A stretch of DNA of 64,000 nucleotides from Candidatus Woesebacteria bacterium RIFCSPLOWO2_01_FULL_44_24b (GTDB taxonomy: Bacteria > Patescibacteriota > Microgenomatia > UBA8517). The stretch is from positions 3,857 through 67,856 of the forward strand of contig MGHM01000014.1 in NCBI GenBank assembly GCA_001793235.1. The letters run 5' to 3'. Each line of letters starts with the position of its first letter. Position 1 is the first letter of the stretch. Position numbers and translations under genes: made by a program. Shown here in pieces: positions 1 through 24,560 of the stretch. The notes under the pieces were generated by a model. The model was not told the origin of the DNA. It saw only the letters and a list, made by a program, of their open reading frames with translations, and searched no databases.

Positions 1-220
1 CTTTATTTCTGCGATGGGAATGTTTCTCTTGGCAACTATTACTTTCTTACCCCTTTGCACGAGATCGAGATAATGTGATAGATTAGCCTTTGCCTCATGG
101 ATATTTATTATTAGCATATGTTTACATACTAGACTAACTATATGGTCAAGTCAACATTTAACGGTCTTTATGTTAATTGCAACTGGAAAGTTTCGGCTAA
201 TATGTATATATTGATATGTA

Positions 221-733
221 ATGGATTACCATTTTTTGCGCCCCAAACGGGTTCGCGAACAACCCGTTAATAGCTCTTATATTTTTAAACTTGTGGGCCG
301 GTTTTTACCAGTATTTTTGCTCGCGGCGATACTGCCTTTTTTGATAGGTTTTGTGGTAGCCCCGCCTGATATTTCTTTTTTAACCCGCGCGGACGCAACT
401 TCCGAGCTTCGTGTGTGGGTGGAACCGGCAAATGTTGTCATGTCTCCGGGCGGAACCACCGAATTCACCGTTCTTGCTCAGTTTGAAGGGGAGGAAAAGT
501 TAATACCCGAGATAACCCTTACATTGACTGCCAGTAGTGGCTTGGTGCTCGAGAACAAGAGTGTTACCTATAAAGTTCCATTCAATGGAAGAGTAGAACT
601 CGGTCGGGTTGGTGTCCGGGCGGAAAGCGCGGGTGAGGCTATGGTTGATATATCCCGGGAAAGCATTAAAATTACAGCCTTTGAATGGCCACTTGAAGTT
701 TCAACTGCACCCGCGAAGGTAATTATAAGATAA
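221..733 (+). CDS. hypothetical membrane-anchored protein, first gene of the pseudopilin cluster
   Basis: 170 aa ORF with one N-terminal hydrophobic helix (LPVFLLAAILPFLIGFVVA). It lies directly upstream of three prepilin-type genes on the same strand. No recognisable catalytic motif. Confidence 0.4.
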   Translation: MDYHFLRPKRVREQPVNSSYIFKLVGRFLPVFLLAAILPFLIGFVVAPPDISFLTRADATSELRVWVEPANVVMSPGGTTEFTVLAQFEGEEKLIPEITLTLTASSGLVLENKSVTYKVPFNGRVELGRVGVRAESAGEAMVDISRESIKITAFEWPLEVSTAPAKVIIR

Positions 734-741
734 CTCGACTC

Positions 742-1194
742 ATGCAATTTTTTCCTGCCCGACACAAAGGATTGACTCTCATAGAGCTTCTTGTTGTGGT
801 TGTAATTATCGGGGTTATGGCAACGCCTCTTCTTTTGACATATCGAAGTCACCGCACAAGTCAAGCACTCCTTAGCTCAGCCGAGACGGTTGCCAACCAT
901 ACTCGCTCGGCGCATGTTTTTGCCCGAGAGGCACGCACTCAGCGCGGATGGGGCGTAAGAAGCACCGGGCAGACTTCTTATTCTATTTTTAGTTTGAGTA
1001 CGGCAGGCACACGCGATGAGCAAAAGTATGTGCTTGATTCAGGGGTGGCTTTTGAGGACGACTTCGAAATTTTATTTGAAATCGGTACAGGCGATACTGC
1101 GCGCGATGCCACCATTGTTTTGGTAAATGCCAATGGCAGAAAGTCAGTTGTGAACGTTGGCCGCTCCGGAGTAGTGGAGGTTATTCATGAGTAA
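742..1194 (+). CDS. type IV pilin-like / pseudopilin (prepilin-type N-terminal cleavage-methylation domain)
   Basis: N-terminus MQFFPARHKG|LTLIELLVVVVIIGV carries the class III signal: G at -1, E at +5 and a hydrophobic helix. Size of 150 aa is typical of minor pilins. Confidence 0.75.
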   Translation: MQFFPARHKGLTLIELLVVVVIIGVMATPLLLTYRSHRTSQALLSSAETVANHTRSAHVFAREARTQRGWGVRSTGQTSYSIFSLSTAGTRDEQKYVLDSGVAFEDDFEILFEIGTGDTARDATIVLVNANGRKSVVNVGRSGVVEVIHE

Positions 1195-1657
1195 AGGATA
1201 TTTTTTGATTGAAGCCTTACTCTCCATTGTTATATTTGCGGTGCTTATACTTTCGGTTTTTTCAATGATAAGCTTCTTGCAAAGGCGTACCATGCGATCC
1301 AGTTTTGAGGCGGAGGCCACGATATTGGTGCAGGATGCAATGGAAATAACCCACACTGTAATTCTTTCTGATTGGGCCGGGTACCCGGACGGCACTTATT
1401 ATCCGGTTTTTAATGCTGATTCTAATTCCTGGATTCTGTTCCCCGGGGAGGAGACAGAGCTTGAAGCCCGCTACAGCCGGAAAGTGGTTTTGCAAAGAGT
1501 GTGCAGGGACTCGCGCGGCGAGCGGATGGATACTTCTCCTTGTCTAGGAGCGCTTGACAACATGAGCCGTGAGGCAGAAGTAACTGTTTCCTGGATGGAG
1601 AGAGACGTAAGCCATGAAATAAGCGCCGAGCTTTTAATACTTAATACAAATGAATAA
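1187..1657 (+). CDS. pseudopilin / minor pilin (prepilin-type N-terminal domain)
   Basis: N-terminus MSKG|YFLIEALLSIVIFAVLIL has G at -1 and E at +5. It overlaps the upstream pilin gene by 8 nt, consistent with an operon. Confidence 0.7.
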   Translation: MSKGYFLIEALLSIVIFAVLILSVFSMISFLQRRTMRSSFEAEATILVQDAMEITHTVILSDWAGYPDGTYYPVFNADSNSWILFPGEETELEARYSRKVVLQRVCRDSRGERMDTSPCLGALDNMSREAEVTVSWMERDVSHEISAELLILNTNE

Positions 1658-2546
1658 GCATAGCTTGCTGTTTTACAGTAAAGCCTTTACTTTGATTGAA
1701 ATACTGGTGGGGCTTGCGCTCTCCGCTGCAATTTTTGTTGTGACAACAAGTCTGGTCGTCAATATCTTTAGTTCAAGCTTAAAAAGCAGGCAGGCAGAGC
1801 TCATGGAGCAGGTAAAAAATGACCTGAGCGCTGAGTTTGGCAATTCTGTGCGTTGGGCGGACTCGGTTTCTTTTGTTGGCGGCCTGCTTCAAATCGATGC
1901 CCTAAGTTACAAGCTTGATGGCGGCAGACTTTACAAGGGAAGTTCAGCGATTACTCCGGAGGAGGTTGAAATTACTAAATTTGAAATTACAAAATATGAA
2001 AGTCAGGGTTCTGCGGAGGGGAGTGGCTCAGGCTTGACCTCACAGTACTTTAATAATGAAGATTTTACAGCGCTCGCCTTTACCCAAAAAGATTTTAATA
2101 TTGATTTTGACTGGGGAGAGGGCTCACCCGACGATTTATTGGATATTGATACCTTTTCGGTCAGGTTTACCGGAGAGGTTTTAGCTCCGCGCGCCGGGGA
2201 TTATGTTTTTTATGTCGACTCTGACGATAGTGCCAGGCTTTGGGTTGACAGCAACCTGATTATTGATGACTGGGCAATACCCGGTTTTTCTGAAGTGTCT
2301 GAGAGGATAAGACTTACCGAAGGCCGCCACGATATCCGCCTTGATTATGTTGAAAATTTTGGTCCTGCTCGGTTGCGTCTAGCATGGAGTTATCCGGGAC
2401 AGGGAAAAGAAGCAATTCCTACTGTTAATCTCTTTCCAAAGTCAGGACCGGTAAGCATTAAAATTGCAGTGGAAATGAGAGTAAAAGTCAGTCAGTCGCA
2501 GGTGGACAGTCTTAGCCTGATATTGTCACCAAGAAGCGGGATATGA
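1650..2546 (+). CDS. pseudopilin with C-terminal PA14-like carbohydrate-binding domain
   Basis: N-terminus KA|FTLIEILVGLALSAAIF is prepilin-like. The C-terminal segment FSVRFTGEVLAPRAGDYVFYVDSDDSARLWVDSNLIIDDW...RLDYVENFGPARLRLAWSYPGQ matches the PA14/GLEYA consensus (G-Y-F, SDDG-like, L-W/IDG, ID-W). Confidence 0.7.
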   Translation: MNKHSLLFYSKAFTLIEILVGLALSAAIFVVTTSLVVNIFSSSLKSRQAELMEQVKNDLSAEFGNSVRWADSVSFVGGLLQIDALSYKLDGGRLYKGSSAITPEEVEITKFEITKYESQGSAEGSGSGLTSQYFNNEDFTALAFTQKDFNIDFDWGEGSPDDLLDIDTFSVRFTGEVLAPRAGDYVFYVDSDDSARLWVDSNLIIDDWAIPGFSEVSERIRLTEGRHDIRLDYVENFGPARLRLAWSYPGQGKEAIPTVNLFPKSGPVSIKIAVEMRVKVSQSQVDSLSLILSPRSGI

Positions 2547-3706
2547 GCAAAAAATTACAAAATGGGGCAATCACAGCGATATTTTTAGCGGTAGTTGCCT
2601 TGGTGCTGACGCTTATTTTGGCAGCAACACAATCTCAACTTCTCTTGTCTATTCGCCGAAGTCAGTCTGCGGCCGACATTTTAATAGCCACATATGGGGC
2701 TGAAAGTGAGGTAAACGATATTATGGCAAAGCTGAGTGGTGGCTACCTTGCCGATGCCGACATTGCCAGGACCACGAAAAACATAGGAGATACAACACTG
2801 ACAATTGAAGGGGAAGACCAGGGAGAAACTCAGATTGTAACGGTTACGGCCTCGCGGGGTTATGCTGTTGGCAAGGTGCAAGGGATTAGGAGAGTGCTTT
2901 CAGTTGAAGAGGTAGACGATGTGGAGTTAGTACTGACTCTGGACTGTACGAGCAGTATGGACGCTCGAGATGCATCCGCAAGCTGTACTGGCAGTAGTTG
3001 CCCCACAAGATTTAATGCACTGGAAGAGGCGGCCATAAATTTTGTGAATAATATTGAGAGGCAGGAAGATGCCGACAAGTTTAAACTGGGCGTTGCAATA
3101 TTTGGCAAGAGTTCGGCATGGCTTCAGTCAAACGGCCGGGACATTACACCGGAGTCGGGTATGAGTTTTAGTGAAATAAGGACGGCCATAGAGGCTGGTA
3201 TCAATACTGTTAGGCGTGGTGGCCAATGTGAAAGAGTGCTGGATGGCACGAGTATCGGCACAGCCTACAGGCATGGTCATAACTACTTGGTTACTACAAA
3301 AAACCCCGACACCAAGCAGATAGAAATTGTTATTACAGATGGCGAGCCGAATTCCAGAACTACTGATAGCGCTTGTCCACCCAGCATTGCCTGCGGCCCG
3401 AATTCCGCGTGTGAGCCAGCTGCAAAGAATTATTTGAGGTGTACCCTGGCGGACAATCTGACTTTTGTTCCGGAAATCAGCCAAAACGGTGCGAGGGACC
3501 CTGAAGTCGATGCCTATGCGGTGACCATTTTTGACAGGCCTCCAACGGACGTGGTTACCATTTTCAGAAATTATGCAACCGAGGATGGTTATTTTAATGC
3601 CAGTCGGGCATCTGAATTGACCAACATTTTGGAGGGAATTTTAGATAAGATATTAGAAGACCGCTCAACCGTGACTATCAAAAGAGTAATACCAACGCTT
3701 GAATAA
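2543..3706 (+). CDS. TadG-like pilus-associated protein with von Willebrand factor A (vWA) domain
   Basis: N-terminal hydrophobic TadE/G-like helix ITAIFLAVVALVLTLILAA. MIDAS motif DCTSS in VELVLTLDCTSSMD. Downstream vWA hallmarks GTSIG and IVITDGEPN. ATGA overlap with the upstream pseudopilin. Confidence 0.65.
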   Translation: MSKKLQNGAITAIFLAVVALVLTLILAATQSQLLLSIRRSQSAADILIATYGAESEVNDIMAKLSGGYLADADIARTTKNIGDTTLTIEGEDQGETQIVTVTASRGYAVGKVQGIRRVLSVEEVDDVELVLTLDCTSSMDARDASASCTGSSCPTRFNALEEAAINFVNNIERQEDADKFKLGVAIFGKSSAWLQSNGRDITPESGMSFSEIRTAIEAGINTVRRGGQCERVLDGTSIGTAYRHGHNYLVTTKNPDTKQIEIVITDGEPNSRTTDSACPPSIACGPNSACEPAAKNYLRCTLADNLTFVPEISQNGARDPEVDAYAVTIFDRPPTDVVTIFRNYATEDGYFNASRASELTNILEGILDKILEDRSTVTIKRVIPTLE

Positions 3707-4577
3707 TATGAATATAAGTTTATCTCTTGCCCATTTGCTGATTCCCAGGCACACCAACAATTATAAGGCTAAAGTTCTTACGACTTCATCGCTTTTGAGT
3801 TTGGCAACTCTTTTTGTACTGGTGCATACAATCCTTGGTATTTTGTCGGCCCCGCGGGTCGCAGTATTGGGTTATGCCTCGAGCATTTCGCCAGATAAAG
3901 TGATCGAGCTTACGAATGTCCAGCGTCTTGAGGCTGGGGTTGGCAAAGTTATTTACAGCCAGGAGCTTGAGAACGCAGCGAGGCTTAAAGCCGAGGACAT
4001 GCTCGCAAAAGACTATTGGGCGCATACAGCTCCGGATGGAACGGAGCCTTGGGATTTTTTTAAGTCGGTTGGCTACGTTTACCGCTTCGCCGGTGAGAAT
4101 CTTGCCCGTGATTTTTCAAATTCTGAGAGTGCAGTTGAGGCTTGGTTGGCCTCACCCTCACATCGCGAGAATATGCTCTCCGGCAAGTATACCGAAATTG
4201 GCGTGGCGGTTATTGAGGGGGACTTAAACGGTAAAGATACTACTTTGATTGTCCAGCTTTTCGGCACGCCAAGAACGGCAGCACCAGCAATCCCCGAGGT
4301 TGCAGCAGAAGTTGGGCTTCCAAGTGTAAATGCTGCCCCGCCGGTACTTGCCCAAAAGTCAGAACCTGCTCCAATAGTTGCGGCCAATAGTTTTGACTTG
4401 ATGAGGGCATTTACGGTCGGCGTGGTTGCGATTCTCCTTGTGGTTTTTGCCACGGATGTCGTGGTCATTAGTAGGCGCGGAATCACGAGGATGGGAGGCA
4501 AAACTCTGGCACATCTATCCTTTATGGTTATGATTTTGGTAATATTATTTATAGTTCGAGCAGGGGAAATTATATGA
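3699..4577 (+). CDS. CAP/SCP (PR-1-like) domain protein with C-terminal transmembrane anchor
   Basis: The central region (QRLEAG...DYWAHTAPDGTEPWDFF...GENLARDF...EAWLASPSHRENMLSGKYTEIGVAV) matches the CAP domain motifs, including the HxxxE-like HREN and the GENL/W signature. The C-terminal helices VGVVAILLVVFATDVVVI and LAHLSFMVMILVILFIV are hydrophobic. Confidence 0.65.
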   Translation: MNNMNISLSLAHLLIPRHTNNYKAKVLTTSSLLSLATLFVLVHTILGILSAPRVAVLGYASSISPDKVIELTNVQRLEAGVGKVIYSQELENAARLKAEDMLAKDYWAHTAPDGTEPWDFFKSVGYVYRFAGENLARDFSNSESAVEAWLASPSHRENMLSGKYTEIGVAVIEGDLNGKDTTLIVQLFGTPRTAAPAIPEVAAEVGLPSVNAAPPVLAQKSEPAPIVAANSFDLMRAFTVGVVAILLVVFATDVVVISRRGITRMGGKTLAHLSFMVMILVILFIVRAGEII

Positions 4578-4837
4578 ATAAAAAACACTTAAAACATCTT
4601 CCACATTTCGTTCCTCTTTTGGGCATATTCGGAGCGGGGATACTGGCGTTTTTGTTGTTTTCTTACGATAAACAATTTCAGATTGGAGTTGCCGTTTCAG
4701 TCGCCGCAGCCCACTTGACCTGGGGCATAGTTCACCATATGGTCCATGGAGACGTGACTCCCGAAATCATTCTGGAATATTTGGCGGTTTCTGTGCTTGG
4801 GCTTGCCGCCATTCTTTCGGTAATTCTTCACACGTAG
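4574..4837 (+). CDS. small two-TM membrane protein with His-rich loop
   Basis: 87 aa with two hydrophobic helices flanking HLTWGIVHHMVHGD. ATGA overlap with the upstream gene. Function unknown. Confidence 0.35.
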   Translation: MNKKHLKHLPHFVPLLGIFGAGILAFLLFSYDKQFQIGVAVSVAAAHLTWGIVHHMVHGDVTPEIILEYLAVSVLGLAAILSVILHT

Positions 4838-4854
4838 TGCTATAATTTCTGGGT

Positions 4855-5364
4855 ATGAAAAACTTAAATAGTAATGGTCATTTCGTGAGTCCTTCGGTGG
4901 GCGCCCTTTCGGTGCCAAGGATGATTAGTGAAATAACCAACTTTGTGAAAAGCGACCCGGGCAGCTACTACAAGCTCGTTATTGGAACGGACTCACAGGT
5001 GCGTCATACCAATGGTCTTGCCGAATGTGATTATGTGACGGCGATAATAATTCATAGGTTGGGCACAGGAGCGAAGTATTTTTGGAAGAAGGAGAAAGTC
5101 AAAATTGCCCCGGTTTTGAGAGATAAAATTTACAAAGAAACTACAATGTCCCTGAATGCAGCTGAGACCCTGGTGCCTGAAATCAGAAAAAGTATCAACG
5201 GAAGTGGTAAATATGAGCTGGAAATTCATATTGATGTGGGTAAGCAGGGCCCAACGCGTGAGATGATAAAAGAAGTTGTTGGTATGGTAACCGGTTCGGG
5301 CTATGTGGCCAAAACTAAACCAGATAGTTGGGGGGCGAGTTCAGTTGCCGACAAGCATACATAA
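4855..5364 (+). CDS. DUF458/YkuK-like (predicted RNase H-like fold) protein
   Basis: The KLVIGTDSQ motif and the ~170 aa size resemble the YkuK/DUF458 family. Assignment is from memory of the family signature, not from a search. Confidence 0.4.
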   Translation: MKNLNSNGHFVSPSVGALSVPRMISEITNFVKSDPGSYYKLVIGTDSQVRHTNGLAECDYVTAIIIHRLGTGAKYFWKKEKVKIAPVLRDKIYKETTMSLNAAETLVPEIRKSINGSGKYELEIHIDVGKQGPTREMIKEVVGMVTGSGYVAKTKPDSWGASSVADKHT

Positions 5365-5366
5365 AA

Positions 5367-6554
5367 ATGTCTGCAGAACAGGGATCATTTATACAAAGCC
5401 AGAAAGCACGGATAGATTCCTTGGTCAGGAGAAGAAAGTATGAGCGATTATTGGCTTTCCGCTTGGAAGAGCAGGATTTCGCTACTTCTATTTATCTGAG
5501 AGTCTTCGATGAAGTTCTTCAAGACCCGGATGTTGATCTAGCTGCCGTCAGAGAAGATATAAATAAATCTTGCAGCAGCTTAGAAGAAACGCGCTTTCTT
5601 AATCAATTTGTATACGACCTAGAGTTAACTCAACAAAAAGTGTTTCTTACCGAAGGACTGATTAAACATACTCTTGAAAGGAATTCATTACAACCGACGG
5701 GGGAGAGAATTGGGAAAGCACTTTTTCTTAGTGGCGTCGGAGCAGATCCGGTTGGAGAGGTAAAAGCGTCTGTTGGAATTGCTTCGTTAAAGATATATAT
5801 CGGAAGTCGCACCGACTACGTGAGGTTATATGGTAAGTTCTCTGTAGGTACTGGTTTCTTCAAGCCATATCAGAAAGTGATGCTACCTCTGGAAGGGACT
5901 CAATATGCTACCAGTATTCCCCTATCAGTTATATTTACAGGGGAAGGAAGGTCAGAGAATCAAATTCGTCAAACTGAAATGCATGAGGAGGCCCATGCAA
6001 TTAATCAAAGGCTTATAGTAACCCGTGCTACACTTTATAGTAAGGAAAGGAAACAATGGCAACTGTACCACGGTGGCAAAATAGAAGATTTAGTCAAGTC
6101 CTTCGACCGTGACCAAGAAATAGCAGAAGCAGGCATACCATTAATTTCAAGCCTTTTTGGTAGGAGGTCTGCGAGGTTAGCAACACTGGTCGAAGCGAGT
6201 TCGTATAAATTTGCCATGTCCCGCGCCCAGGATGAAATTATTGCCATGCAATCTTCGAACGGTTCATATTGGGAGTTTATATTCTCGTATGATCCTTATG
6301 ACTATTACCAAGGGGTGGGTTTAAGGTTGTCTCAATTGGGTTATTCCCATTTAGGTCAATGCGTAGATAAGTCCAGGGACAGATATTTGAAATCTTTAGA
6401 AAGTATTTTTGAGTATGTTGGTTTGGTTCGTTCGCAGATTGCAGAGGATGAGCAAGAGAAATTGACTCAATTACTTCGGGAAATCCCAATCAGCAGATGG
6501 AAAAGGGAATTGAGAAGGAGATATGGAGTATCAGTTATTGATGAGCGTATTTGA
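5367..6554 (+). CDS. hypothetical protein with HExxH (zincin-like) motif
   Basis: The ATG at 5367 follows the upstream stop by 2 nt; the listed ORF start at 5328 is a TTG. It contains EMHEEAHAINQ (HEEAH = HExxH). No other recognisable domain and no TM segment. Confidence 0.45.
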   Translation: MSAEQGSFIQSQKARIDSLVRRRKYERLLAFRLEEQDFATSIYLRVFDEVLQDPDVDLAAVREDINKSCSSLEETRFLNQFVYDLELTQQKVFLTEGLIKHTLERNSLQPTGERIGKALFLSGVGADPVGEVKASVGIASLKIYIGSRTDYVRLYGKFSVGTGFFKPYQKVMLPLEGTQYATSIPLSVIFTGEGRSENQIRQTEMHEEAHAINQRLIVTRATLYSKERKQWQLYHGGKIEDLVKSFDRDQEIAEAGIPLISSLFGRRSARLATLVEASSYKFAMSRAQDEIIAMQSSNGSYWEFIFSYDPYDYYQGVGLRLSQLGYSHLGQCVDKSRDRYLKSLESIFEYVGLVRSQIAEDEQEKLTQLLREIPISRWKRELRRRYGVSVIDERI

Positions 6555-6576: not shown

Positions 6577-7434
6577 ATGAAGGGCATAATTCTTTCGGGT
6601 GGGAATGGAACGAGACTTTATCCGTTAACCAAAGCTATCAGTAAGCAGTTGATGCCTATTTTTGACAAGCCGATGATTTATTATCCCCTTTCAACTCTTC
6701 TTCAGGCCGGCATCTGTGAAATACTAATTATTTCGACTCCAAAGGACCTTCCAAAATTTGTGGAACTGCTTGGCGACGGCTCGCAAATAGGCTGCGAGTT
6801 CAGTTACAAAATTCAGGAGTCTCCCCGGGGACTTGCGGACGCCTTCATAGTTGGAGAAGAATTTATCGGCAAAGACAAAGTCGCCATGATTTTGGGAGAT
6901 AATATATTTTACGGTGCTCAGATCGATAAACAGACTAGGAAATTTCTCGACGTAGATGGAGCGGTTGGTTTTGCTGCACATGTTCATGACCCCGAGCGTT
7001 ACGGCGTTTACGAGTTTGATGAAGACATGAATGTGCTTTCAATTGAAGAAAAGCCGGCTCGTCCAAAATCTAATTATGCCAATGCCGGGCTTTATTTTTG
7101 CGATAATGAGGTTACCCAAATCGCAAAAAAAGTTAAGCCTTCGGCCCGGGGTGAGCTTGAAATTACGTCGGTTTTGGAAGCTTATCGAAAGCGGGGAAAG
7201 CTGAAGGTTTGTTTGCTAGACAGGGGTTCTGCGTGGCTTGATACCGGAACTTTTGATTCCATGATGAAAGCCTCCCAGTTCGTTCAGGTTGTTGAAGAAA
7301 GACAAGGCCTTAAAGTAGGCTGTATTGAAGAGATTGCCTACCGTAAAGGGTATATCACGAAAAAGCAGCTTCAAAAATTGGCAGAGGGACTCCTGAAAAG
7401 CGGATATGGAAAATATTTAATGGAGATTACATGA
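6577..7434 (+). CDS. rmlA: glucose-1-phosphate thymidylyltransferase
   Basis: N-terminus [18 protein letters not shown]...[19 protein letters not shown] is the canonical RmlA/RfbA G-x-G-T-R-L nucleotidyltransferase signature. It is followed by rmlB, rmlC and rmlD. Confidence 0.9.
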
Positions 7435-8441
7435 GCAATGTTCTGGTTACAGGCGGCTGCGGCTTTATTGGTAGTAATTTTATTCGCTCTTGGCTCAAGA
7501 GTTACCCTAAGGACAAAATAATCAATTTGGACAAGCTCACTTACGCGGGGCACATTTCGTCGCTTCGCGATGTTGAAAAAGACAAAAATTACAAATTCGT
7601 AAAAGGGGATATTTGTGATTCAAAATTAGTGGCGAAAGTGGTGAATGAAGTCGAAACCGTTGTGCATTTTGCAGCAGAGAGCCACGTTGACCGCTCAGTT
7701 GTGGGCCCTGCAGTTTTTGTAAAGACAAATGTTTTGGGAACGCAGGTGCTACTGGATGCAGCTGTAAAGTATAAAGTTAAGCATTTTCATCACATTTCTA
7801 CAGATGAAGTGTTCGGGGCACTTCCTCTAAGCTCCGGTGAAAAATTCCGTGAAAATACTAATTATGACCCCAGAAGTCCGTATTCGGCTTCAAAAGCCGC
7901 TTCAGATCACTTAGTGCGGGCCTACTTTCATACTTTTAATTTGCCAACAACCATTACAAATTGCGCCAATAATTATGGTCCTTATCATGATCCGGAGAAA
8001 CTTTTTCCTCGGATGATTACGGATCTTATCGACGGGAGCCCAGTAAAAATATATGGAGATGGAAAGTATGTTCGCGATTGGCTCCATGTAGAGGACCACA
8101 TTAGAGCCATTGATTTGGTTATTAAAAAGGGAAAGATTGGGGAAACTTATCTGGTCGGGAGCACAATAAAGGAAATTAACAATCTAGCGGTTGCCAGAAA
8201 GCTGATAAAGCTATTTGGGAAAAGTGAGAAAGAATATATAAAGTTTGTCAAAGACCGCCCCGGGCATGACAGAAGATATGCAATTGACTGGAGCAAACTC
8301 GCGCGCCTGGGTTGGAAGCCGAAGTATGACCTTGATACCGGGCTCAATGAGACAGTAGAATGGTACAGGCAAAACGAATGGTGGTGGAGGCTGCTAAAAG
8401 CGCGAGCTGAGAAGCTATATGAAAAAACCGGGCAAAAATAA
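7431..8441 (+). CDS. rmlB: dTDP-glucose 4,6-dehydratase
   Basis: [17 protein letters not shown] Rossmann motif, the [10 protein letters not shown] catalytic YxxxK and the conserved NNYGPY motif. ATGA overlap with rmlA. Confidence 0.9.
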
Positions 8442-9006
8442 CTTTTTAGATATAAAATTGGAAAGTCATCCCAAGAATGTTACCGTTGATTGGCTTCAAG
8501 AACTTGAGAAGTCAGGTAAATTTGCTGTGCAGGGTATTTATAAGTCCCCGACAATAGAAGGCGTGATACTAAAAGAGTTGAATGTACTAGTAGACGGAAG
8601 AGGAGACGTTATCGAATTGTGGAGCAGGCCTTGGGTTGAAAAAGAAGGTTTTGTGGTGCCCGAACATTGTTATCAAAGCGCGACCGACTTCGGTGTTACA
8701 AAATGCTGGCATCTGCATGCAATTCACACCGATCAATTCACTGTTACGAGAGGTAAACTGCAGGTACTACTTGTTGACATAAGAGAAAAGTCTCCGACCT
8801 TTGGCCACGTAAACTCTGTATTCTTGGGGACACAAAAGCCCAGGCTTCTAAAAATTCCACCCGGTATTATGCATGGATGGAAAGCATTAACCCGACCCGA
8901 AGTCATCGTGGTAAATTTTCAATCTCATGTTTATTTGGCGGAAGATGAATTTAAGTATCCCTGGAATTGTGTTTTAGAACATGCCTGGGAGCCTAATAAT
9001 GGCTAA
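8419..9006 (+). CDS. rmlC: dTDP-4-dehydrorhamnose 3,5-epimerase
   Basis: Cupin-type RmlC core: LVDGRGDVIELWS (compare FGDERGFFMETF) and a downstream histidine-containing strand. The N-terminus is uncertain; the true start may be the in-frame GTG near 8527 rather than 8419, which would give a 45 aa extension and a 23 nt overlap with rmlB. Confidence 0.7.
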   Translation: MKKPGKNNFLDIKLESHPKNVTVDWLQELEKSGKFAVQGIYKSPTIEGVILKELNVLVDGRGDVIELWSRPWVEKEGFVVPEHCYQSATDFGVTKCWHLHAIHTDQFTVTRGKLQVLLVDIREKSPTFGHVNSVFLGTQKPRLLKIPPGIMHGWKALTRPEVIVVNFQSHVYLAEDEFKYPWNCVLEHAWEPNNG

Positions 9007-9892
9007 AATTATAACCTTTGGTGCAAAAGGAATGGTTGGTTCACGAGTTCTAGAGCTTCTTGGTAAGGACTTTGAGTTCGTGGCTCCCGACGAGAGAGAA
9101 GTGGATATAACCAAAGGCGAGAAGCTCAAAGCATATTTGGGTAAAGAAAAACCTCAAGTTATTATTAATTTCGCTGCGATTACGGATGTCAACACCTGTG
9201 AAACGGAGCGTGAAAATAAAGAAGGCATTGTTTGGAAAGTCAACGCTCTTGCCCCCGGGTATCTTTCAGAACTTTCTCACAAAAATAATTTTTTTATGGT
9301 TCAGATTTCTACTGACATGGTATTTCCGGGCTCAGAAGAAGACTCCGGGCCATATGACGAGTCGCACAAAACCGGGAACGACCAAAATTTAGCCTGGTAT
9401 GGGGCCAGTAAAGCCGAGGGCGAAGCCGCATCCCTTGGCGAAGAAGGCAATGCCGTCGTTCGAATAATTTACCCGGCTCGAGCGCACTTCCCCCAAAAGT
9501 TGGACTATGCAAGGAAGATTTTGGCGCTTCATGACGAGGGCAAGCTTTACCCTATGCTTATTAATCAACAAATGAATATCACTTACATCGATGAGCTGGC
9601 AGAAGCTTTGAAAGTTATAGCTTCAAGGCGGCTCAGTGGAATATACCATGTTGCCTCGGCTGATTTAACTACTCCGTATGAATTTGCATCTTATTTAATA
9701 GAAAAAGCGCGTGGGGTAAAGAATGTGGTACAAAAAAACACTTTTGACGAGTTTATTAAAGGCCGAGATAGACGGCGCTACCCTCAATTTGGCGGGTTAA
9801 AGGTTGAAAAAACTCAATTAACTCTGGGTGTACAGTTTTCTTCCTGGAGGGAAATAGTTGATAGCCTCATTTCCAGCTTGCAATTTGAGTAA
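8981..9892 (+). CDS. rmlD: dTDP-4-dehydrorhamnose reductase
   Basis: MAKIITFGAKGMVGSRV Rossmann N-terminus, YGASKAEGE (YxxxK) and ~300 aa length. It lies immediately after rmlC. The probable start is the ATG at 8999. Confidence 0.8.
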   Translation: MPGSLIMAKIITFGAKGMVGSRVLELLGKDFEFVAPDEREVDITKGEKLKAYLGKEKPQVIINFAAITDVNTCETERENKEGIVWKVNALAPGYLSELSHKNNFFMVQISTDMVFPGSEEDSGPYDESHKTGNDQNLAWYGASKAEGEAASLGEEGNAVVRIIYPARAHFPQKLDYARKILALHDEGKLYPMLINQQMNITYIDELAEALKVIASRRLSGIYHVASADLTTPYEFASYLIEKARGVKNVVQKNTFDEFIKGRDRRRYPQFGGLKVEKTQLTLGVQFSSWREIVDSLISSLQFE

Positions 9893-9931: not shown

Positions 9932-11401
9932 TTGTTGCGTGGGGAAAACAATATTATGGGCATATTCAAAAAGTACACCAAGAAGATAACAATACTGGTT
10001 TTGCTGATTGCAATTATTTTAGCCTCACTAGCGGTGAAAGTTGTAAATCTAAATTACAATTCACCTTTTAATGATGAGGCTATTTATGTAGTAGTTGGCA
10101 AATTGGGTGTATTTGAGAAAGACTGGGAAACATTGGTTCCCTTTGAATGGATGGCAGGGGTGCCTTATTTTTATCCAAGTATTTCAGCTTTTGCATATGA
10201 GCTTGGTGGCATAGAAGCATCAAGATTTTTAAATGTAGTGTTTTTTGCGCTCACTGCGTTTCTGGTTTATAAAATTGCTTATTTACTGAGTGAAGGAAAA
10301 GACAAAGTAAAAGAGAAGGCCGGCTGTTTAGCTGCGGCAATTTTTGCCGGCTCTTCGGTAGGCTATTACGTTTCTCGGCTTGCTACTTATGATATGCCAA
10401 GCTTTTTCTTCTTTGCGTTGAGTTTATATTTTTTTATATTAGCTGAGCAAGCACGCAGGCTCCCGGGCAGGAAATATATTCTTTCTGCAATATTTTTAGT
10501 AGTGGCTTTCTTTTTTAAATATATAATCGCACTATATGTACCTATTTTATTGGCTTTTTCCTTTTTCGTCCAGAAAACAAGTTATCGTAAACGGGCAACT
10601 TTAGTGTATTTTGCACTGCCTTTGGTTATGGCGTTTTTTGTTTTTGGTATTACCCAGTTTAAAAGCCTTGGTATATACATTAGTGTACAAACTGAACTCG
10701 AGATAAAATCTCCTCTTGTAGACATGTTAGTTTTTGTAGTTAACCAGATTGGTTTAATATTGCCGTTTTGGGTCGTCGGTAGTTATTGGTTCTATAAAAA
10801 AGAAAAACTTAGAGTCTGGGCATTCTTTACTTTCTTTTCATTTATTATTATTTTGTTCCATGTTCTTAATCAGCGGCTACATACTCTCGATAAACACATA
10901 TTGTTAGCAATTGGAGGATTAGCCGTTTCAGCAGGTATTGGTGTAAGCAATATGATAAAGCACAAGGTTCACGATCGTATTTTATTATTGGGGATTGGTG
11001 TTTTTTGGGTATTATCATTTGTTGTCTCCCTGAAATACAATAGCGCCTGGGTTAATGCGTATTCGGTTATGGATTTCGTTGGGAAAAACAGTCACTCTGA
11101 AGATGTAGTCCTAAGTGAAATTGGCGCGATAACACAGCTGGACCTTTATGAAAAAGTTAATCCACTGAGGGTGTTTACGTTTGATTGGATTTATTACGAT
11201 GAGCACGAAGGCGAGGAAGCGCTTGTGAATGGCGTAAGCGATGGCTATTTCAACACTATTATCCTTGAAACACAAGAGGATGGTAAATCAGATTTTAATT
11301 CTGCTTATCATGAGCTCATAGTTGAAAATCGGGAGTTCAACAGAATTTATTCAAACATATATAGTGACGATCATTTTGAGGTGTATCGGAGGAACTATTA
11401 A
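9932..11401 (+). CDS. polytopic membrane protein, GT-C-type glycosyltransferase-like (PMT/ArnT-like DE loop motif)
   Basis: At least 10 predicted TM helices. The first extracytoplasmic loop carries FNDEAIYV (an Asp-Glu pair as in GT39/GT83 loop 1). There is a large C-terminal soluble region. It is a distant relative of the 47130-56694 paralog family. Confidence 0.5.
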   Translation: MLRGENNIMGIFKKYTKKITILVLLIAIILASLAVKVVNLNYNSPFNDEAIYVVVGKLGVFEKDWETLVPFEWMAGVPYFYPSISAFAYELGGIEASRFLNVVFFALTAFLVYKIAYLLSEGKDKVKEKAGCLAAAIFAGSSVGYYVSRLATYDMPSFFFFALSLYFFILAEQARRLPGRKYILSAIFLVVAFFFKYIIALYVPILLAFSFFVQKTSYRKRATLVYFALPLVMAFFVFGITQFKSLGIYISVQTELEIKSPLVDMLVFVVNQIGLILPFWVVGSYWFYKKEKLRVWAFFTFFSFIIILFHVLNQRLHTLDKHILLAIGGLAVSAGIGVSNMIKHKVHDRILLLGIGVFWVLSFVVSLKYNSAWVNAYSVMDFVGKNSHSEDVVLSEIGAITQLDLYEKVNPLRVFTFDWIYYDEHEGEEALVNGVSDGYFNTIILETQEDGKSDFNSAYHELIVENREFNRIYSNIYSDDHFEVYRRNY

Positions 11402-11402
11402 C

Positions 11403-12245
11403 ATGGCAAGGAAAAAACTAAACAGAGCATACACGAATTTATTGTGGCTGGTGATACCGATGGCTGTCTTTGCGCTGTTTGCAAAATATTTAGTGACCGA
11501 GTCCCCCATAGAAAAATATGAAGATGATACGCTCAGTTTGAAATCCGGCGAACCATCGAAGCCTGTCATCTCTGAGTACAATTGGCATGGCGAAGCTCTC
11601 GTAACTTTTTGGTTTGACGATGGGTGGAGGTCTCAATATTCAGAGGGATTTAGAATCTTAGATAATTATGGTTATAAAGCAGCATTGGCGGTACCAATTG
11701 AACCTATTGGGTATGAGGCTTACATGAACTGGCATCAGATACGAAAGCTGCATTATCTAGGGTGGGAAATAGCTTCGCACAGTAGGTCTCATGATTGTGA
11801 CCTGGTTTATAAAGGGGAGCCTGCATTTGAATATGAAATCTTTGGAGGAAAACAGGATTTGGAGAACTATGGTATTTTGACCGACATTTATGTGGCTCCC
11901 TGTGGAGAGAATACGCCGGAGGCAACTGAATATGTAAAAAGACACTTTTTGTCTCAGAGGATAGTAGAGCCGGGGCTAAACCCTCTGCCAGTTACGGATA
12001 ATTACGGTCTTATGGTTAAACAAGTCAGCAGAGATATTGATATTGAAGAAATAAAAGGTTGGATTAATGAGGCGATAAGTAAAAAACAATGGATAATTTT
12101 GATGTTACATCAAATCGACGACGAAGATACCGAATACGGTACGACCCCGGATAATTTGGAGCAAGTTGTTGATTTTGTCAATCACTCTAATATATCAGTT
12201 GTACTACCTTCCCAGGCACTTGGAGTAGAAAGGCGAAATGAATAA
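11403..12245 (+). CDS. polysaccharide deacetylase (CE4 / NodB-homology domain), membrane-anchored
   Basis: N-terminal TM helix. TFWFDDGW (the TFDDG motif 1 of CE4), a metal-binding His-containing SHSRSHD, and the AALAVPI and YVAPCGE segments. The start is taken at the ATG right after the upstream stop. Confidence 0.7.
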   Translation: MARKKLNRAYTNLLWLVIPMAVFALFAKYLVTESPIEKYEDDTLSLKSGEPSKPVISEYNWHGEALVTFWFDDGWRSQYSEGFRILDNYGYKAALAVPIEPIGYEAYMNWHQIRKLHYLGWEIASHSRSHDCDLVYKGEPAFEYEIFGGKQDLENYGILTDIYVAPCGENTPEATEYVKRHFLSQRIVEPGLNPLPVTDNYGLMVKQVSRDIDIEEIKGWINEAISKKQWIILMLHQIDDEDTEYGTTPDNLEQVVDFVNHSNISVVLPSQALGVERRNE

Positions 12246-13314
12246 AGTAGCAATAATAATGCCGGCACACAATGAAGAGAAAGTGATAAAAATGACCATT
12301 CAATCGGCCATCTCTGCTGTGGGCAAATTGAATGTGTATTTGGTGGACGATGGGTCGAGCGATAAGACAAGTCAGGTTGCACAGAAATTCCTCAAGAATG
12401 TCCTGGTAAAGAAACAAAATGGCGGGAAAGCAAATGCTATAAATTCTGGAATATCTAAGTTTGAGCTGACAAAAAGATATGAATTTATAATGCCGATAGA
12501 TGCAGACACCATATTGGCGGATGACTTTTTCAAGAATATTTTTAATGTTTTTGCTAAGGACAAGAAGAAGAAAATTGCTGCTGTTGTAGGGAAAGTAACG
12601 GGAAGAAATAAGAAATGGATTACTACTTACAGGTTGTGGGAGTATGAGATAAACCAGTCCGTACACAAGGCCGCTCAATCCATGTTGGGGGCTATAACCG
12701 TCTGCCCCGGCCCTTCTACAGTGTATAGATCAAAAGTATTTAAAAGAATTAAGTATTCTGAGGATACCCAAACCGAGGATATGGACTTTACATTCAGAAT
12801 TCACAGGCTTAATCTTGGCCGAATAGTATATGAGCCATCAGCTGTTGTTTCAACTCAAGACCCGGCCACCATCACTGCTTATATCAAGCAGGTCAAGAGG
12901 TGGTACATAGGTTTTTGGCAATGTATTCTTAAACATAAAGTACCCTGGGGCGGGCAAAAATTGGATGCTGAGGCTGGGCTTCTGGCGACCGACGCGCTAC
13001 TGAATGTTCTTTTGGCTGCCTTGTTCGTCGTTTTGGTTCCTGCATCACTTTTTGTAGATCCGATAGTATTGATATCTCCCGCTCTTGCCGACCTTTTTAT
13101 TTTTATGCTGCCTTCAATACTGTACGTTAGCATTAGACGCAAAATTTACGGCCTCATTTTGTTTTTGCCGCTTTTCTATTTTTTGAGGGTTATCGGTAGT
13201 TTTACATTCTTTTACAGTTTCTTAAAAGTTACTCTTGGCCTTAGGGCTAAGATGTCGAACGTTTGGAATACACAAAGGTATAGAGTAATGAAGGAGGAAA
13301 TATGGGTCAGCTAG
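12238..13314 (+). CDS. processive family-2 glycosyltransferase (NodC/IcaA/chitin-synthase-like) with C-terminal TM helices
   Basis: MPAHNEEKVI...VYLVDDGSSDKT (DXD region), QTEDMDFTFRIH, and KQVKRWYIGFWQ (the QxxRW processivity motif). Four C-terminal TM helices. 8 nt overlap with the upstream CE4 gene. Confidence 0.7.
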   Translation: MNKVAIIMPAHNEEKVIKMTIQSAISAVGKLNVYLVDDGSSDKTSQVAQKFLKNVLVKKQNGGKANAINSGISKFELTKRYEFIMPIDADTILADDFFKNIFNVFAKDKKKKIAAVVGKVTGRNKKWITTYRLWEYEINQSVHKAAQSMLGAITVCPGPSTVYRSKVFKRIKYSEDTQTEDMDFTFRIHRLNLGRIVYEPSAVVSTQDPATITAYIKQVKRWYIGFWQCILKHKVPWGGQKLDAEAGLLATDALLNVLLAALFVVLVPASLFVDPIVLISPALADLFIFMLPSILYVSIRRKIYGLILFLPLFYFLRVIGSFTFFYSFLKVTLGLRAKMSNVWNTQRYRVMKEEIWVS

Positions 13315-13393
13315 GAAGCATATCTTTAGTATTTCACTTATTTGTACTTATAGTCGGTAAAGTGTATATTTACCTGAGGTCAAAACTCAGGAG

Positions 13394-14470
13394 ATGAAGT
13401 ACGCATTACCATCATTCTTTCTTTTAACATCATTTTTTACGGTTGTTTTTGTGCTGGTTGCAAATAGTATTAACTTATCACCTTCAAGGGCAGTGGATAA
13501 TATCAAGAAGAGCCTCGCTTACAGTACATCGGATATTGAGTCGGAATACTCCGCTTGGGTGCCTTGGTGGGATGAGCCGGCCTCTATCAATTCTTTGAAG
13601 AACTCAAATAATCAAGTTAAAACGATACTGCCTGTTTGGTATCAGATAAACGAGGCTGGAAAGCTTATTGAGACAGATAGTAAGCTCAAAGAAGAAGTGT
13701 TAAAGGTTGCAAAAGAGCTTAACATTAGTGTTGTCCCTACCATTAGTAATGCCAGTGGTTACGATTTTGACGGTGAAAGAATTTCCAAGTTGCTTGGAAG
13801 CGAAGAACTGCGCGAAGGGTTGGTTGCAAACTTATTGGAACTGGCTCAAAAAAATGCCTTTCGTGGGTGGGATCTTGATTGGGAGCAGGTGAAAAAGGAG
13901 GACAGAGAAGCTTATTCTTCTTTTGTTGATTTATTGGGCAAAAGACTCAATAGTAAAAATTTGAAACTGTCGGTAACTGTGCATGCGCAGGCTGGTAAGG
14001 TTTCGGATTGGGATGGTACAAGCGGCCAAGACCTTAAGGCAATAGGTAATAGTGCGAATTATGTTCGGGTAATGGCCTATGATTTTCATCATTCGAAATC
14101 TTCTCCCGGCTCGGTAACACCGATGGATAGACTTTCCGAAACGCTGGAATACTCGGCAAAAGTAATCCCCTTGGATAAATTGGTATTGGGGCTCCCTTCA
14201 TATGGTTACGATTGGATTGGAGATGAGGGGACAGCAATGCAGTATGAAAAAATAGTTGATTATCTCGGTAAAAATGGAATTCAAAGCCAAAGAGATTCAG
14301 AAACTTATTCATTGTATGCCAATTTTGATTTGGAGGGAGCGGAGCATGCTTTGTGGTATGAGGACGCTGAGAGTTTTCATGAAAAGGTCAAACTTGCCAA
14401 GTCATACGGAGTTTACCAAGTGACGTTATGGCACCTTGGTGGTGAGGATCCTCGCATTTGGGCTTACTGA
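13394..14470 (+). CDS. glycoside hydrolase family 18 (chitinase-like) with N-terminal signal/anchor
   Basis: FRGWDLDWEQ matches the GH18 catalytic DxxDxDxE motif. The N-terminal hydrophobic segment and the ~340 aa TIM-barrel-sized body fit the family. A RBS-like AGGAG lies 5 nt upstream. Confidence 0.65.
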   Translation: MKYALPSFFLLTSFFTVVFVLVANSINLSPSRAVDNIKKSLAYSTSDIESEYSAWVPWWDEPASINSLKNSNNQVKTILPVWYQINEAGKLIETDSKLKEEVLKVAKELNISVVPTISNASGYDFDGERISKLLGSEELREGLVANLLELAQKNAFRGWDLDWEQVKKEDREAYSSFVDLLGKRLNSKNLKLSVTVHAQAGKVSDWDGTSGQDLKAIGNSANYVRVMAYDFHHSKSSPGSVTPMDRLSETLEYSAKVIPLDKLVLGLPSYGYDWIGDEGTAMQYEKIVDYLGKNGIQSQRDSETYSLYANFDLEGAEHALWYEDAESFHEKVKLAKSYGVYQVTLWHLGGEDPRIWAY

Positions 14471-21549: not shown

Positions 21550-22533
21550 ATGACGTACAAGCAGTCTTTGGAAATACTGGATAAAATCAAGGCGGCCAGG
21601 CGGGTTTTGGTTAATTGCCATCAAAGGCCGGACGTGGACTCTATTAGTAGCGCCCTTTCGATGTGTGTGGCACTCAAACAAATGGGCAAGGAAGTCAAGG
21701 TGATTTGCCCGGATGATAAACTCCCTGAACTAAGCTTTCTCTCCTGCTTTAATGAATTTGAGAAAATTGACTATAACACTTTTGATTTTTCCAAGTACGA
21801 TCTGTTTATGGTTCTCGACTCCGCTTCCCCGGAAGTTGTCACCGGGAGCAAAACCATACCCCTGCCGGAAATCGAGACAGTTGTTATTGACCACCATCAT
21901 ACAAGCATTGAGTTTGGAAAGATCAACTTGATAGATGCTGAGCGCTCTGCCACGACTGAGCTTCTTTATCTTCTTTTTGAGGATTGGAACATTGATATCA
22001 CCAAGGAACTTGCAACATCGCTTTTGACCGGAATTCTTGGGGATACTGGTGCATTCGAGTACCACAACACTACTCCAAGAACTCTCCAGATTGCAGCCGA
22101 CTTAATGAGCCTCGGGGCAGATAAAGATGGGATTCTTCTTAAGATATTCAGGAGCAAACAGATGAACCTTCTTAAGTTTTGGGGCAAGGTGCTTGATAAG
22201 CTTGAGGTTGACGCGAGTGGAAAGTTCACCTGGTGCGCAATTCCTTATAGTGTTTATAGTGCGTTGGGGGAGCCGCAAACCGCTCGCGAGTCCGCAAGTT
22301 CACTATTCAGCCGAATGATTGAAGGAACGGAGTTTGGCATTGTCATGCTTGAAGAGTCACCCGGGGAACTCAGGGCGTCATTTCGTGCCAGAAGCACGGG
22401 CTTTGATGTTTCAAAAATTGCGACAGCACTTGGAGGAGGTGGACATGCCGGTGCCGCAGGAGTAACAGTTATAAACGGCAGCTTTGGTGATTCTGTAAAG
22501 AAGGTTGTCGAAACTGCAAGAAGATTTGTATGA
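21550..22533 (+). CDS. DHH/DHHA1 phosphoesterase (NrnA-like nanoRNase / pAp phosphatase)
   Basis: DHH motifs CHQRPDVDSISS and VIDHHHTS, the GDTGAF motif, and the DHHA1 GGGGHAGAAG motif near the C-terminus. About 325 aa. Confidence 0.8.
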   Translation: MTYKQSLEILDKIKAARRVLVNCHQRPDVDSISSALSMCVALKQMGKEVKVICPDDKLPELSFLSCFNEFEKIDYNTFDFSKYDLFMVLDSASPEVVTGSKTIPLPEIETVVIDHHHTSIEFGKINLIDAERSATTELLYLLFEDWNIDITKELATSLLTGILGDTGAFEYHNTTPRTLQIAADLMSLGADKDGILLKIFRSKQMNLLKFWGKVLDKLEVDASGKFTWCAIPYSVYSALGEPQTARESASSLFSRMIEGTEFGIVMLEESPGELRASFRARSTGFDVSKIATALGGGGHAGAAGVTVINGSFGDSVKKVVETARRFV

Positions 22534-23510: not shown

Positions 23511-23527
23511 GCGATATAATTGTTCTA

Positions 23528-24555: not shown

Positions 24556-24560
24556 CTATA

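Follow-up and report, generated by a model that had tools for sequence, protein, structure and literature searches.

A predicted minor pilin of Candidatus Woesebacteria with a lectin-type PA14 domain inserted in its pilin head

The subject of this work is a 298-residue protein encoded on the plus strand at positions 1650-2546 of a 64,000-nucleotide stretch of Candidatus Woesebacteria DNA (contig MGHM01000014.1; the whole stretch is called the window below). Homology and structural models place a PA14 domain in the β5-β6 hairpin of a complete small pilin of about 150 residues, and the inserted domain retains a putative calcium- and sugar-binding site. We consider it likely that the protein is a modular minor type IV pilin, probably belonging to a tip or priming complex, and that it serves as a calcium-dependent glycan adhesin. 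The parts of the gene and its product are as follows.

1650..2546, plus strand: predicted modular minor pilin with a PA14 domain, 298 residues (Pfam, phmmer, homologues, AlphaFold and Foldseek).
1650..1685, plus strand: leader peptide, residues 1-12 (MNKHSLLFYSKA), with predicted prepilin-peptidase cleavage after Ala12; residue -1 is Gly or Ala in homologues.
1686..1853, plus strand: α1 helix, residues 13-68, with Phe+1, Glu+5 and a hydrophobic α1N (invariant F13 and E17; helix in the model).
1854..2000, plus strand: pilin head strands β1-β5, residues 69-117 (DSSP strands at 73-116; contiguous alignment with PA14-less pilins).
2001..2030, plus strand: Gly/Ser-rich linker of variable length, residues 118-127, QGSAEGSGSG (low model confidence, high entropy).
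2031..2438, plus strand: PA14 domain, residues 128-263, placed in the β5-β6 hairpin (domain by Pfam, 6qe7 and Foldseek; insertion by profile, alignment and the model of the PA14-less pilin P0039).
2223..2228, plus strand: D192-D193, at the position of the DcisD calcium/sugar motif (alignment to D86-D87 of RsgI3 PA14A).
2346..2369, plus strand: Y233-V-E235 and the loop N236-A240, second half of the putative calcium/sugar site (alignment to Y128-x-Q130 and the equivalent loop, CBL2, of RsgI3 PA14A).
2445..2543, plus strand: C-terminal β-hairpin, residues 266-298, strands 269-278 and 285-292, motif LSPRSG (homologous to the C-terminus of PA14-less pilins of 146-190 residues).

The open reading frame has the ends assigned to it in an earlier reading made from the letters alone (the sequence-only reading), and on the source contig the assembly's independent gene caller arrived at identical ends. 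Identical or near-identical proteins from Candidatus Woesebacteria are deposited as OGM31994.1, OGM69798.1 and A0A1F7YXT3 under the names "hypothetical protein" or "PA14 domain-containing protein", and relatives are labeled Candidatus Microgenomates or Patescibacteria group. The homologue set used throughout consists of 20 full-length proteins of 293-317 residues that are 49-69% identical to the window protein.

The assignment of the PA14 domain is secure and far beyond chance. Pfam matches PF07691 to residues 127-257 (E=1.6e-24; 86.8 bits, where the gathering score is 24), and the same family is matched in 20 of 20 homologues. The sequence-only reading had seen a "PA14/GLEYA" signature in the segment GDYVFYVDSDDSARLWVDSNLIIDDW...RLDYVENFGPARLRLAW, which corresponds to residues 183-246; the PA14 part of that claim holds, whereas GLEYA stays below its Pfam threshold (16.8 vs 26.2 bits) and is an echo of the PA14 match. 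A phmmer search against PDB sequences returned the PA14 dyads of RsgI3 from Clostridium thermocellum (6qe7, E=4.4e-57) and of RsgI4 from C. clariflavum (6qdi, E=6e-49). The next-closest sequences are tandem-PA14 proteins of Chloroflexi-type organisms. Distant matches of the first search (P0021-P0033) were considered as further pilin fusions and rejected, as they are non-pilin tandem-PA14 proteins.

An AlphaFold2 model of the PA14 pilin, built on the 20 homologues, reached a mean predicted local distance difference test score (pLDDT) of 81.8 and a predicted template modeling score (pTM) of 0.52, the pLDDT values lying mostly between 77 and 96 in the PA14 region. The comparison with PA14 structures that had been suggested earlier bore the assignment out: Foldseek superposed the model onto 6qe7_B with a root-mean-square deviation (rmsd) of 1.3 Å over 142 columns at 44% identity, followed by the PA14 domains of MpIBP, anthrax protective antigen, Flo1/Flo5 and Epa1, all at probability 1.0. 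The domain ends near residue 263, and the range of 120-298 first given for it is too long, residues 266-298 being part of the pilin fold.

The same early reading described PA14 as fused to a prepilin N-terminus. That PA14 is carried on a type IV pilin or pseudopilin was supported, but a fusion to a bare signal helix was not, as the domain lies in a hairpin and PA14-less orthologues occur in the same cassette. In the model, a helix at residues 8-68 is followed by five strands between 73 and 116, the PA14 domain at 129-263, and two further strands at 269-278 and 285-292. A carrier profile, made by deleting the PA14 columns from the family alignment, found 16 pilins of 146-190 residues at more than 90% coverage, the best being P0039 (E=1e-52, 56% identity). 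The joint alignment takes these short pilins from ...FEITKYES directly into VSIKIAVEM...LSPRSG, and its sole large gap spans window-protein residues ~118-268. The AlphaFold model of P0039, a PA14-less protein of 146 residues, resembles a classic lollipop (pLDDT 87.6, pTM 0.70) in which strand 101-111 is joined to strand 114-123 by a two-residue turn, and both models share a helix of 54-61 residues and then an antiparallel sheet. The linker at 118-127 was modeled at low confidence, with pLDDT below 50 at residues 118-123, and combines the highest column entropy of the protein (2.1 bits) with length variation. The insertion is called from homology and secondary structure, not from measured contacts.

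The carrier pilin belongs to a larger family. When residues 1-120 were searched exhaustively with phmmer against 1.84 billion representatives, 122 clusters came back, most of them about 150 residues long, and at least 12 of the 122 bear PA14 at the same site. The C-terminal hairpin is kept in every PA14-bearing relative inspected, and in some the chain continues into a Pro/Thr-rich or Cys-repeat tail. A scan of GTDB genomes gave, among the matches listed, one full-length locus, the same as locus L004 of the cassette comparison below, together with PA14-less or unrelated pilins. Other additions to the scaffold were also seen: P0109 has a different, unrecognized module of ~110 residues at the same hairpin, P0061 a C-terminal graft of the Big_7 Ig domain, P0056 a tail of repeated CPNxxGxQxSVPxGY cysteine motifs, and P0099 a Cys/Trp-rich tail.

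The N-terminus MNKHSLLFYSKA↓FTLIEILVGLALSAAIFVV (SKA↓FTLIE at the junction, the arrow marking the predicted cleavage site) has a basic leader, a small residue at -1, Phe at +1, Glu at +5 and a hydrophobic tract of ~21 residues. This is the layout of a class III signal, the definition of which includes leaders ending in Ala (2023, PMC9934059). F13 (+1) and E17 (+5) are invariant in the 20 homologues, and the -1 residue is Gly in 13 and Ala in seven of them, the window copy having Ala. N_methyl is matched in 19 of the 20 at E<=0.1 (best 5e-8) and scores above cut-off in the distant relatives P0055 (25.1), P0084 (28.2) and P0087 (25.2). TIGR02532 matches 16 of 16 PA14-less orthologues, with 16.7 vs 16.3 for P0039. 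The family-level invariance of Phe+1 and Glu+5 and the N_methyl matches settle the class III assignment of the window protein, which had been proposed from its own sequence and is also in keeping with its pilin-like gene neighbors. Over the whole protein, column entropy is lowest in the α1 helix. Codon 6, a TTG visible in the sequence, might serve as the start instead, in which case the leader would have seven residues, as in homologues.

The sugar site of PA14 domains has been described in the RsgI proteins. In these, calcium is held by a DcisD pair on β5 (D86-D87 in RsgI3 PA14A), a Tyr two residues ahead of the polar ligand in carbohydrate-binding loop 2 (CBL2) stabilizes the cis peptide, and main-chain carbonyls of CBL2 complete the ligand site; the polar ligand is Gln130 in RsgI3 PA14A and Asn in Flo5, Epa1 and RsgI4 (Grinberg et al. 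2019, PMC6852018). The calcium site directly contacts sugar hydroxyls in the PA14 domains of RsgI, Flo and Epa, and xylan binding by the RsgI4 dyad of C. clariflavum is abolished by ethylenediaminetetraacetic acid (EDTA) (PMC6852018).

In the phmmer alignment, D192-D193, Y233 and E235 of the window protein fall on D86-D87, Y128 and Q130 of RsgI3 PA14A, and CBL2 is N236-A240. Residue 192 is Asp in all 20 homologues, residue 193 is Asp in 11 and Glu in nine, residue 233 is Tyr in 16 and Phe in four, and residue 235 is Glu in 18 and Asp in two. The same DD...Y-x-E/D pattern appears again in more distant PA14-bearing pilins. Residues are therefore retained at every DcisD, Tyr-x-acid and CBL2 position of what the alignment indicates as a putative lectin-type site. 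The sequence-only reading had named, as the case against a lectin-type PA14, a β-sandwich of generic kind in which no site for calcium or carbohydrate is conserved; these positions do not describe such a domain.

The PA14 pilin gene stands fourth in a tight row of seven genes and third among the four pilin-like ones. The other six are listed here.

221..733, plus strand: gene 1, 170 residues, N-terminal membrane segment and β-rich domain; no Pfam or NCBIfam match.
742..1194, plus strand: gene 2, 150-residue pseudopilin with leader ...HKG↓LTLIE, GspH/FimU-like; N_methyl 31.9 bits, above cut-off.
1187..1657, plus strand: gene 3, 156-residue pilin-like protein with MSKG↓YFLIE, ComGE/PilV-like (weak), overlapping both neighbors by 8 nt; position conserved.
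2543..3706, plus strand: gene 5, 387-residue protein with a VWA domain and metal ion-dependent adhesion site (MIDAS) and a PilX/GspK-like N-terminal hydrophobic segment (VWA, VWA_2, 7b7p).
3699..4577, plus strand: gene 6, CAP/YkwD-family protein with a C-terminal membrane segment; CAP PF00188 68.7 bits, TIGR02909 YkwD E=3e-31.
4574..4837, plus strand: gene 7, 87-residue membrane protein whose start codon overlaps the stop codon of gene 6 in an ATGA; a gene of 85-89 residues has the same position at six loci.

Start and stop codons overlap by 4-8 nt at four of the six junctions. Eight cassette loci were examined (L001-L006, L011 and L012), and the first five genes stand in the same order at all eight. 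The gene in first place encodes 164-171 residues at every one of them, and at L005 the slot orthologous to the PA14 pilin is occupied by the PA14-less P0039. A CAP/YkwD gene and a membrane gene of the 87-residue type come after the pilin genes in six of the eight cassettes. We know of no type IV pilus system of which CAP domains are a part.

Besides N_methyl, the product of gene 2 matches TIGR02532 (27.8 bits) and, below threshold, TIGR01708 GspH (E=3e-10), and that of gene 3 has weak matches to ComGE (E=5.7e-6) and PilV (E=1e-3) over its N-terminus only. The VWA domain of gene 5 scores 19.9 bits in the window copy, and VWA_2 is matched in five of six orthologues (best 7.9e-8). A MIDAS-like set D134-x-T136-x-S138 ... 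T236 ... D266 is invariant, as are several cysteines. Its best PDB match, a weak one (E=0.01), is 7b7p, the vWA modular pilin PilB of Streptococcus sanguinis. The N-terminus of gene 5, ..NG↓AITAIFLAVV.. (..K/R-G↓A-x-T-x-I-F-hydrophobic.. in the family), has no Glu+5, in which it appears to resemble PilX and GspK. The VWA protein may give this tip complex a second head for adhesion. The gene order runs from a GspH-like and a ComGE/PilV-like protein through the ComGF/PpdB/GspJ-like PA14 pilin to a VWA protein without Glu+5, an order that would suit a tip or priming set of the GspH-I-J-K, FimU-PilV-W-X or ComGD-G kind, with matches that lie far below equivalog cut-offs and cover the N-terminal helix only. 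Judged by position and this weak N-terminal similarity, the PA14 pilin would take the PilW/GspJ/ComGF slot of a four-protein minor-pilin set.

These observations suggest a possible route from gene to adhesin. After synthesis of the prepilin, its leader of 12 residues would be cut off behind Ala12 by a prepilin peptidase, and the long hydrophobic α1 with Phe+1 and Glu+5 would pack into the filament core. The head would then be a small seven-stranded pilin sheet bearing the ~145-residue PA14 domain in its β5-β6 turn, tethered between a flexible Gly/Ser linker and, at its other side, a short linker, and the domain itself is probably of the bacterial polysaccharide-binding RsgI type. Translational coupling of the PA14 pilin gene to two pilin-like genes and to the VWA/MIDAS gene is indicated by the overlaps, and the four pilin-like proteins probably act together as a complex that primes a type IV filament or sits at its tip. 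The pilus tip might thus display a glycan-binding PA14 domain next to a protein- or metal-dependent VWA module, and its likely role would be to attach the cell to a polysaccharide, either of a host cell or of a surface.

Several results weigh against a calcium-dependent tip adhesin. No pilB, pilC, pilD, pilM or major pilin gene was found in the 64-kb window or the 10 kb upstream, and the machinery is therefore assumed to be encoded elsewhere in the genome. The window protein itself falls just below the cut-offs of N_methyl (PF07963; 18.5 vs 21.2 bits) and TIGR02532 (16.2 vs 16.3), and has Ala, not Gly, at -1. The calcium ligand equivalent to Asn or Gln is a Glu (E235), and the second Asp of the pair is Glu in the nine homologues mentioned above. 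CBL2 is not hypervariable, with a mean column entropy of 1.18 bits over the 20 homologues against a domain mean of 1.13 bits; as the loop is only as variable as the rest of the domain, it gives no sign of host-driven diversification, and hypervariability as a mark of it was rejected. A pTM of 0.52 leaves the orientation of PA14 relative to the pilin undefined in the model. Foldseek of the PA14-less carrier model against the PDB found no solved pilin resembling the carrier, its matches to SHP2 and mucin being spurious (E>0.02, rmsd ~9 Å), and the carrier profile searched against PDB sequences gave only weak matches, to an "adaptor" (E=0.032) and to the N-terminal helices of geopilin and PilA. 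To our knowledge, some PA14 domains, such as that of anthrax protective antigen, have no reported lectin function.

The alternative that survives best keeps the protein and changes its target. The ligand would be a polysaccharide from the environment, whether free or in particles and of plant, fungal or microbial origin (pectin, xylan or chitin, for example), and the pilus would tether the cell to the polymer or capture it. The closest solved relatives are indeed biomass sensors that bind pectin or xylan, the tandem-PA14 proteins of Chloroflexi-type organisms come next in similarity, and 9-12 kb downstream there are genes for a GH18 protein, a chitin-synthase-like glycosyltransferase of family 2 (GT2) and a polysaccharide deacetylase. 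However, the downstream genes are mostly biosynthetic, not degradative, and the cultivated Patescibacteria are reported to be, without exception, obligate episymbionts in which type IV pili mediate host binding (PMC11623550). While sequence alone cannot separate a host ligand from an environmental one, we consider an environmental ligand unlikely.

Less probable again, in our view, is a short pseudopilus of a Com-like DNA-uptake system or of the type II secretion system (T2SS) kind, in which PA14 would bind the glycan of the cell's own envelope and guide or anchor the filament through the wall. The best named matches of the carrier, ComGF, PpdB-like (PRK10557) and GspJ, point in this direction, but they cover only the N-terminal ~50 residues and lie far below cut-offs. 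The rmlABCD genes and ~55 kb of glycosyltransferase genes that directly follow the cassette in the window, L002, L004 and L012 would also suit this reading, but similar genes stand beside the PA14-less orthologue at L005, and some PA14-bearing cassettes, such as L011, have no rml genes. The glycan synteny is therefore not tied to PA14, and we rejected it as a PA14-linked feature. An adhesin-type VWA/MIDAS partner also suggests binding that faces outward.

PA14 might also be a non-lectin module that serves as a structural spacer or binds proteins, in the manner of some toxins and enzymes. We are aware of no report of sugar binding for the PA14 domains of toxins and glycosidases, and proteins of this type are among the fold matches; the ligand set is moreover non-canonical, with E235 in place of Asn or Gln and D193E in nine of 20 homologues. 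Even so, all positions of the DcisD-Tyr-x-acid set are filled and conserved, both in homologues of 49-69% identity and in distant PA14-pilins. In RsgI3 PA14B the DD pair is missing, calcium is not bound, and the domain by itself has no binding to pectin (PMC6852018). Since loss of the pair goes together with loss of binding there, its retention in the PA14 pilin suggests selection for the site, and a non-lectin role appears very unlikely.

An unprocessed and unpolymerized surface lectin, tethered to the membrane by its N-terminal helix as an uncleaved signal anchor, would suit the Ala at -1, the sub-threshold N_methyl score of the window copy and the lack of peptidase or assembly genes nearby, but is highly improbable with Ala-ending leaders inside the class III definition (PMC9934059), Gly at -1 in 13 of 20 homologues, an invariant Glu+5 that is expected only of filament subunits, and a gene placed among other pilin-like genes at every locus.

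The calcium-dependent minor-pilin adhesin thus remains the reading we prefer. A sensor histidine kinase gene (HisKA/HATPase_c, sometimes with HisKA_7TM) is found directly upstream of the cassette in several loci, at these coordinates.

Histidine kinase: L003 4940-6547; L005 277-1845; L011 2308-4467; L012 3330-4541; L001 6243-7838.

In the window's own genome a PIN/PhdYeFM toxin-antitoxin pair sits between the histidine kinase and the cassette. The kinase may regulate the cassette. In a promoter and terminator scan of positions 1-5400, the terminators were no better than those of shuffled sequences and only weak promoter-like sites were seen. Directly after the cassette, an RNaseH_like gene (PF04308) is present in the window (4855-5364), L002, L004 and L005.

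From 6577 to 62547 an almost uninterrupted single-strand island of glycan biosynthesis and glycosylation genes follows, and the density of such genes is very high for a small CPR (candidate phyla radiation) genome. It comprises rmlA/B/C/D at 6577-9892, at least 11 membrane glycosyltransferases of the PMT_2/PMT type (~470-580 residues), YfhO/PTPS_related membrane proteins at 30519-35436, more than 12 GT2 and two GT4 genes, and two Polysacc_synt flippases (35661 and 58573). The polysaccharide deacetylase, chitin-synthase-like GT2 and GH18 (chitinase-like) genes stand side by side at 11322-14470, which suggests synthesis or remodeling of a chitin-like polymer. Three paralogous DHH/DHHA1 phosphoesterase genes (327, 326 and 330 residues) lie inside the island at 21550-25553, the third being set apart by two small open reading frames with no significant Pfam match. 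Over the whole of 1-64000 nearly all long open reading frames are on the plus strand, GC skew is positive in every 2-kb bin and the cumulative skew rises monotonically. No tRNA genes were found in the 64 kb.

Host recognition and attachment by CPR bacteria, or Patescibacteria, is an open question in which type IV pili are leading candidates. A calcium-type lectin domain of ~145 residues would be an expressible handle on the ligand of an uncultivated lineage, and the occurrence of orthologues with and without PA14 in otherwise identical cassettes permits comparative tests. For the annotation and engineering of modular pilins it matters that a module can be housed within the pilin head and not at the C-terminus alone. 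One extension of the proposal is attractive but doubtful. The β5-β6 hairpin, which carries no module in most members of the family, could be a docking site for the swapping of adhesive modules, cassettes with and without PA14, such as those of the window and of L005 (P0039), would then be natural experiments on host or substrate range, and the VWA cap protein would add a protein-binding head to the glycan-binding one in a two-headed tip adhesin. Were the docking-site idea true, a single inserted lectin would determine the range of hosts or substrates open to an uncultivated CPR episymbiont.

The combination of a pilin with PA14 is known. Raynaud et al. (PNAS 2021, PMC8179133) surveyed InterPro for N_methyl proteins with extra domains and defined "modular pilins" as those in which a functional module is joined by a short linker to an N-terminal pilin module. 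Many of their examples come from CPR bacteria, and N_methyl with PA14 (IPR012902-IPR011658) is among the 15 most frequent architectures, with nine proteins and four more that have a further domain (Dataset S1, PMC8179133). The statement in the sequence-only reading that such fusions are rarely described is accordingly too strong, as this architecture has been cataloged (PMC8179133) and lectin-like minor pilins have been reported in Patescibacteria (PMC11623550). The PA14 pilin shares with the Raynaud proteins the N_methyl and PA14 combination, a pilin module with a domain that is not specific to type IV pili. That catalog goes by domain order, with no PA14 member characterized, and its definition is that of a terminal graft, whereas PA14 in the present protein is an insertion, after which the final 33 residues form pilin strands. 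With an N_methyl score of 18.5 vs 21.2, the window protein may have escaped a threshold-based screen.

Searches of the literature on PA14 with pilin, PA14 with Patescibacteria and Woesebacteria with pilin found no paper specifically on this PA14-pilin family. The architecture class and the general idea are already published, and in this respect the advance is incremental. What is new is the hairpin-insertion topology, the pairs of orthologues with and without PA14, and the VWA cap-like partner in a conserved Microgenomates cassette.

Among solved PA14 domains, those of the RsgI3 and RsgI4 dyads (6QE7 and 6QDI) are closest, with 44% identity and 1.3 Å rmsd, and they share the DD pair, the Tyr and the position of the CBL2 ligand. 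The RsgI domains are, however, tandem sensor domains of membrane anti-sigma factors, not filament subunits, and their CBL2 ligand is Gln or Asn, whereas the PA14 pilin has Glu and a loop, NFGPA, unlike the pectin and xylan types. PA14 also reaches the tip of type IV pili in PA14-PilY1 proteins (IPR011658-IPR008707), of which 76 are listed (Dataset S2, PMC8179133). There the carrier is a PilY1 β-propeller that docks on the minor-pilin complex, not a pilin, and no PilY1-like gene is present in the window cassette. A precedent for insertion inside the pilin sheet is GspK, the T2SS minor pseudopilin (PMC8179133), but its insert is α-helical, it has no Glu+5, and no sequence similarity to the PA14 pilin was detected.

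In Patescibacteria themselves, the nearest comparison is Nanosynbacter lyticus TM7x, a Saccharibacterium. There, PilX2 is reported to be required for efficient host binding, and binding to the host is reduced by added rhamnose, mannose or glucose (PMC11623550). PilX1 and PilX2 are likewise large minor pilins with lectin-like modules, although they belong to another CPR phylum and their modules, an L-type-lectin-like jelly roll and a β-propeller, are C-terminal additions and not PA14 domains or hairpin insertions (PMC11623550).

The strongest analogue is the PilC/PilB system of S. sanguinis, even though its organism and host are unrelated to those of the window. The lectin pilin PilC binds host glycans, and the model in which it forms an adhesive complex at the pilus tip with PilA and the vWA pilin PilB has experimental support (PMC9934059, PMC8179133). 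The PilC lectin is of the ConA/galectin-like type and is grafted C-terminally behind an Ig module on a degenerate three-stranded pilin head, whereas the window protein carries PA14; PilB has a canonical pilin module, whereas the window VWA protein has a PilX/GspK-like N-terminus without Glu+5. In both systems, a minor pilin with a lectin-type module is encoded together with a pilin-like vWA/MIDAS protein.

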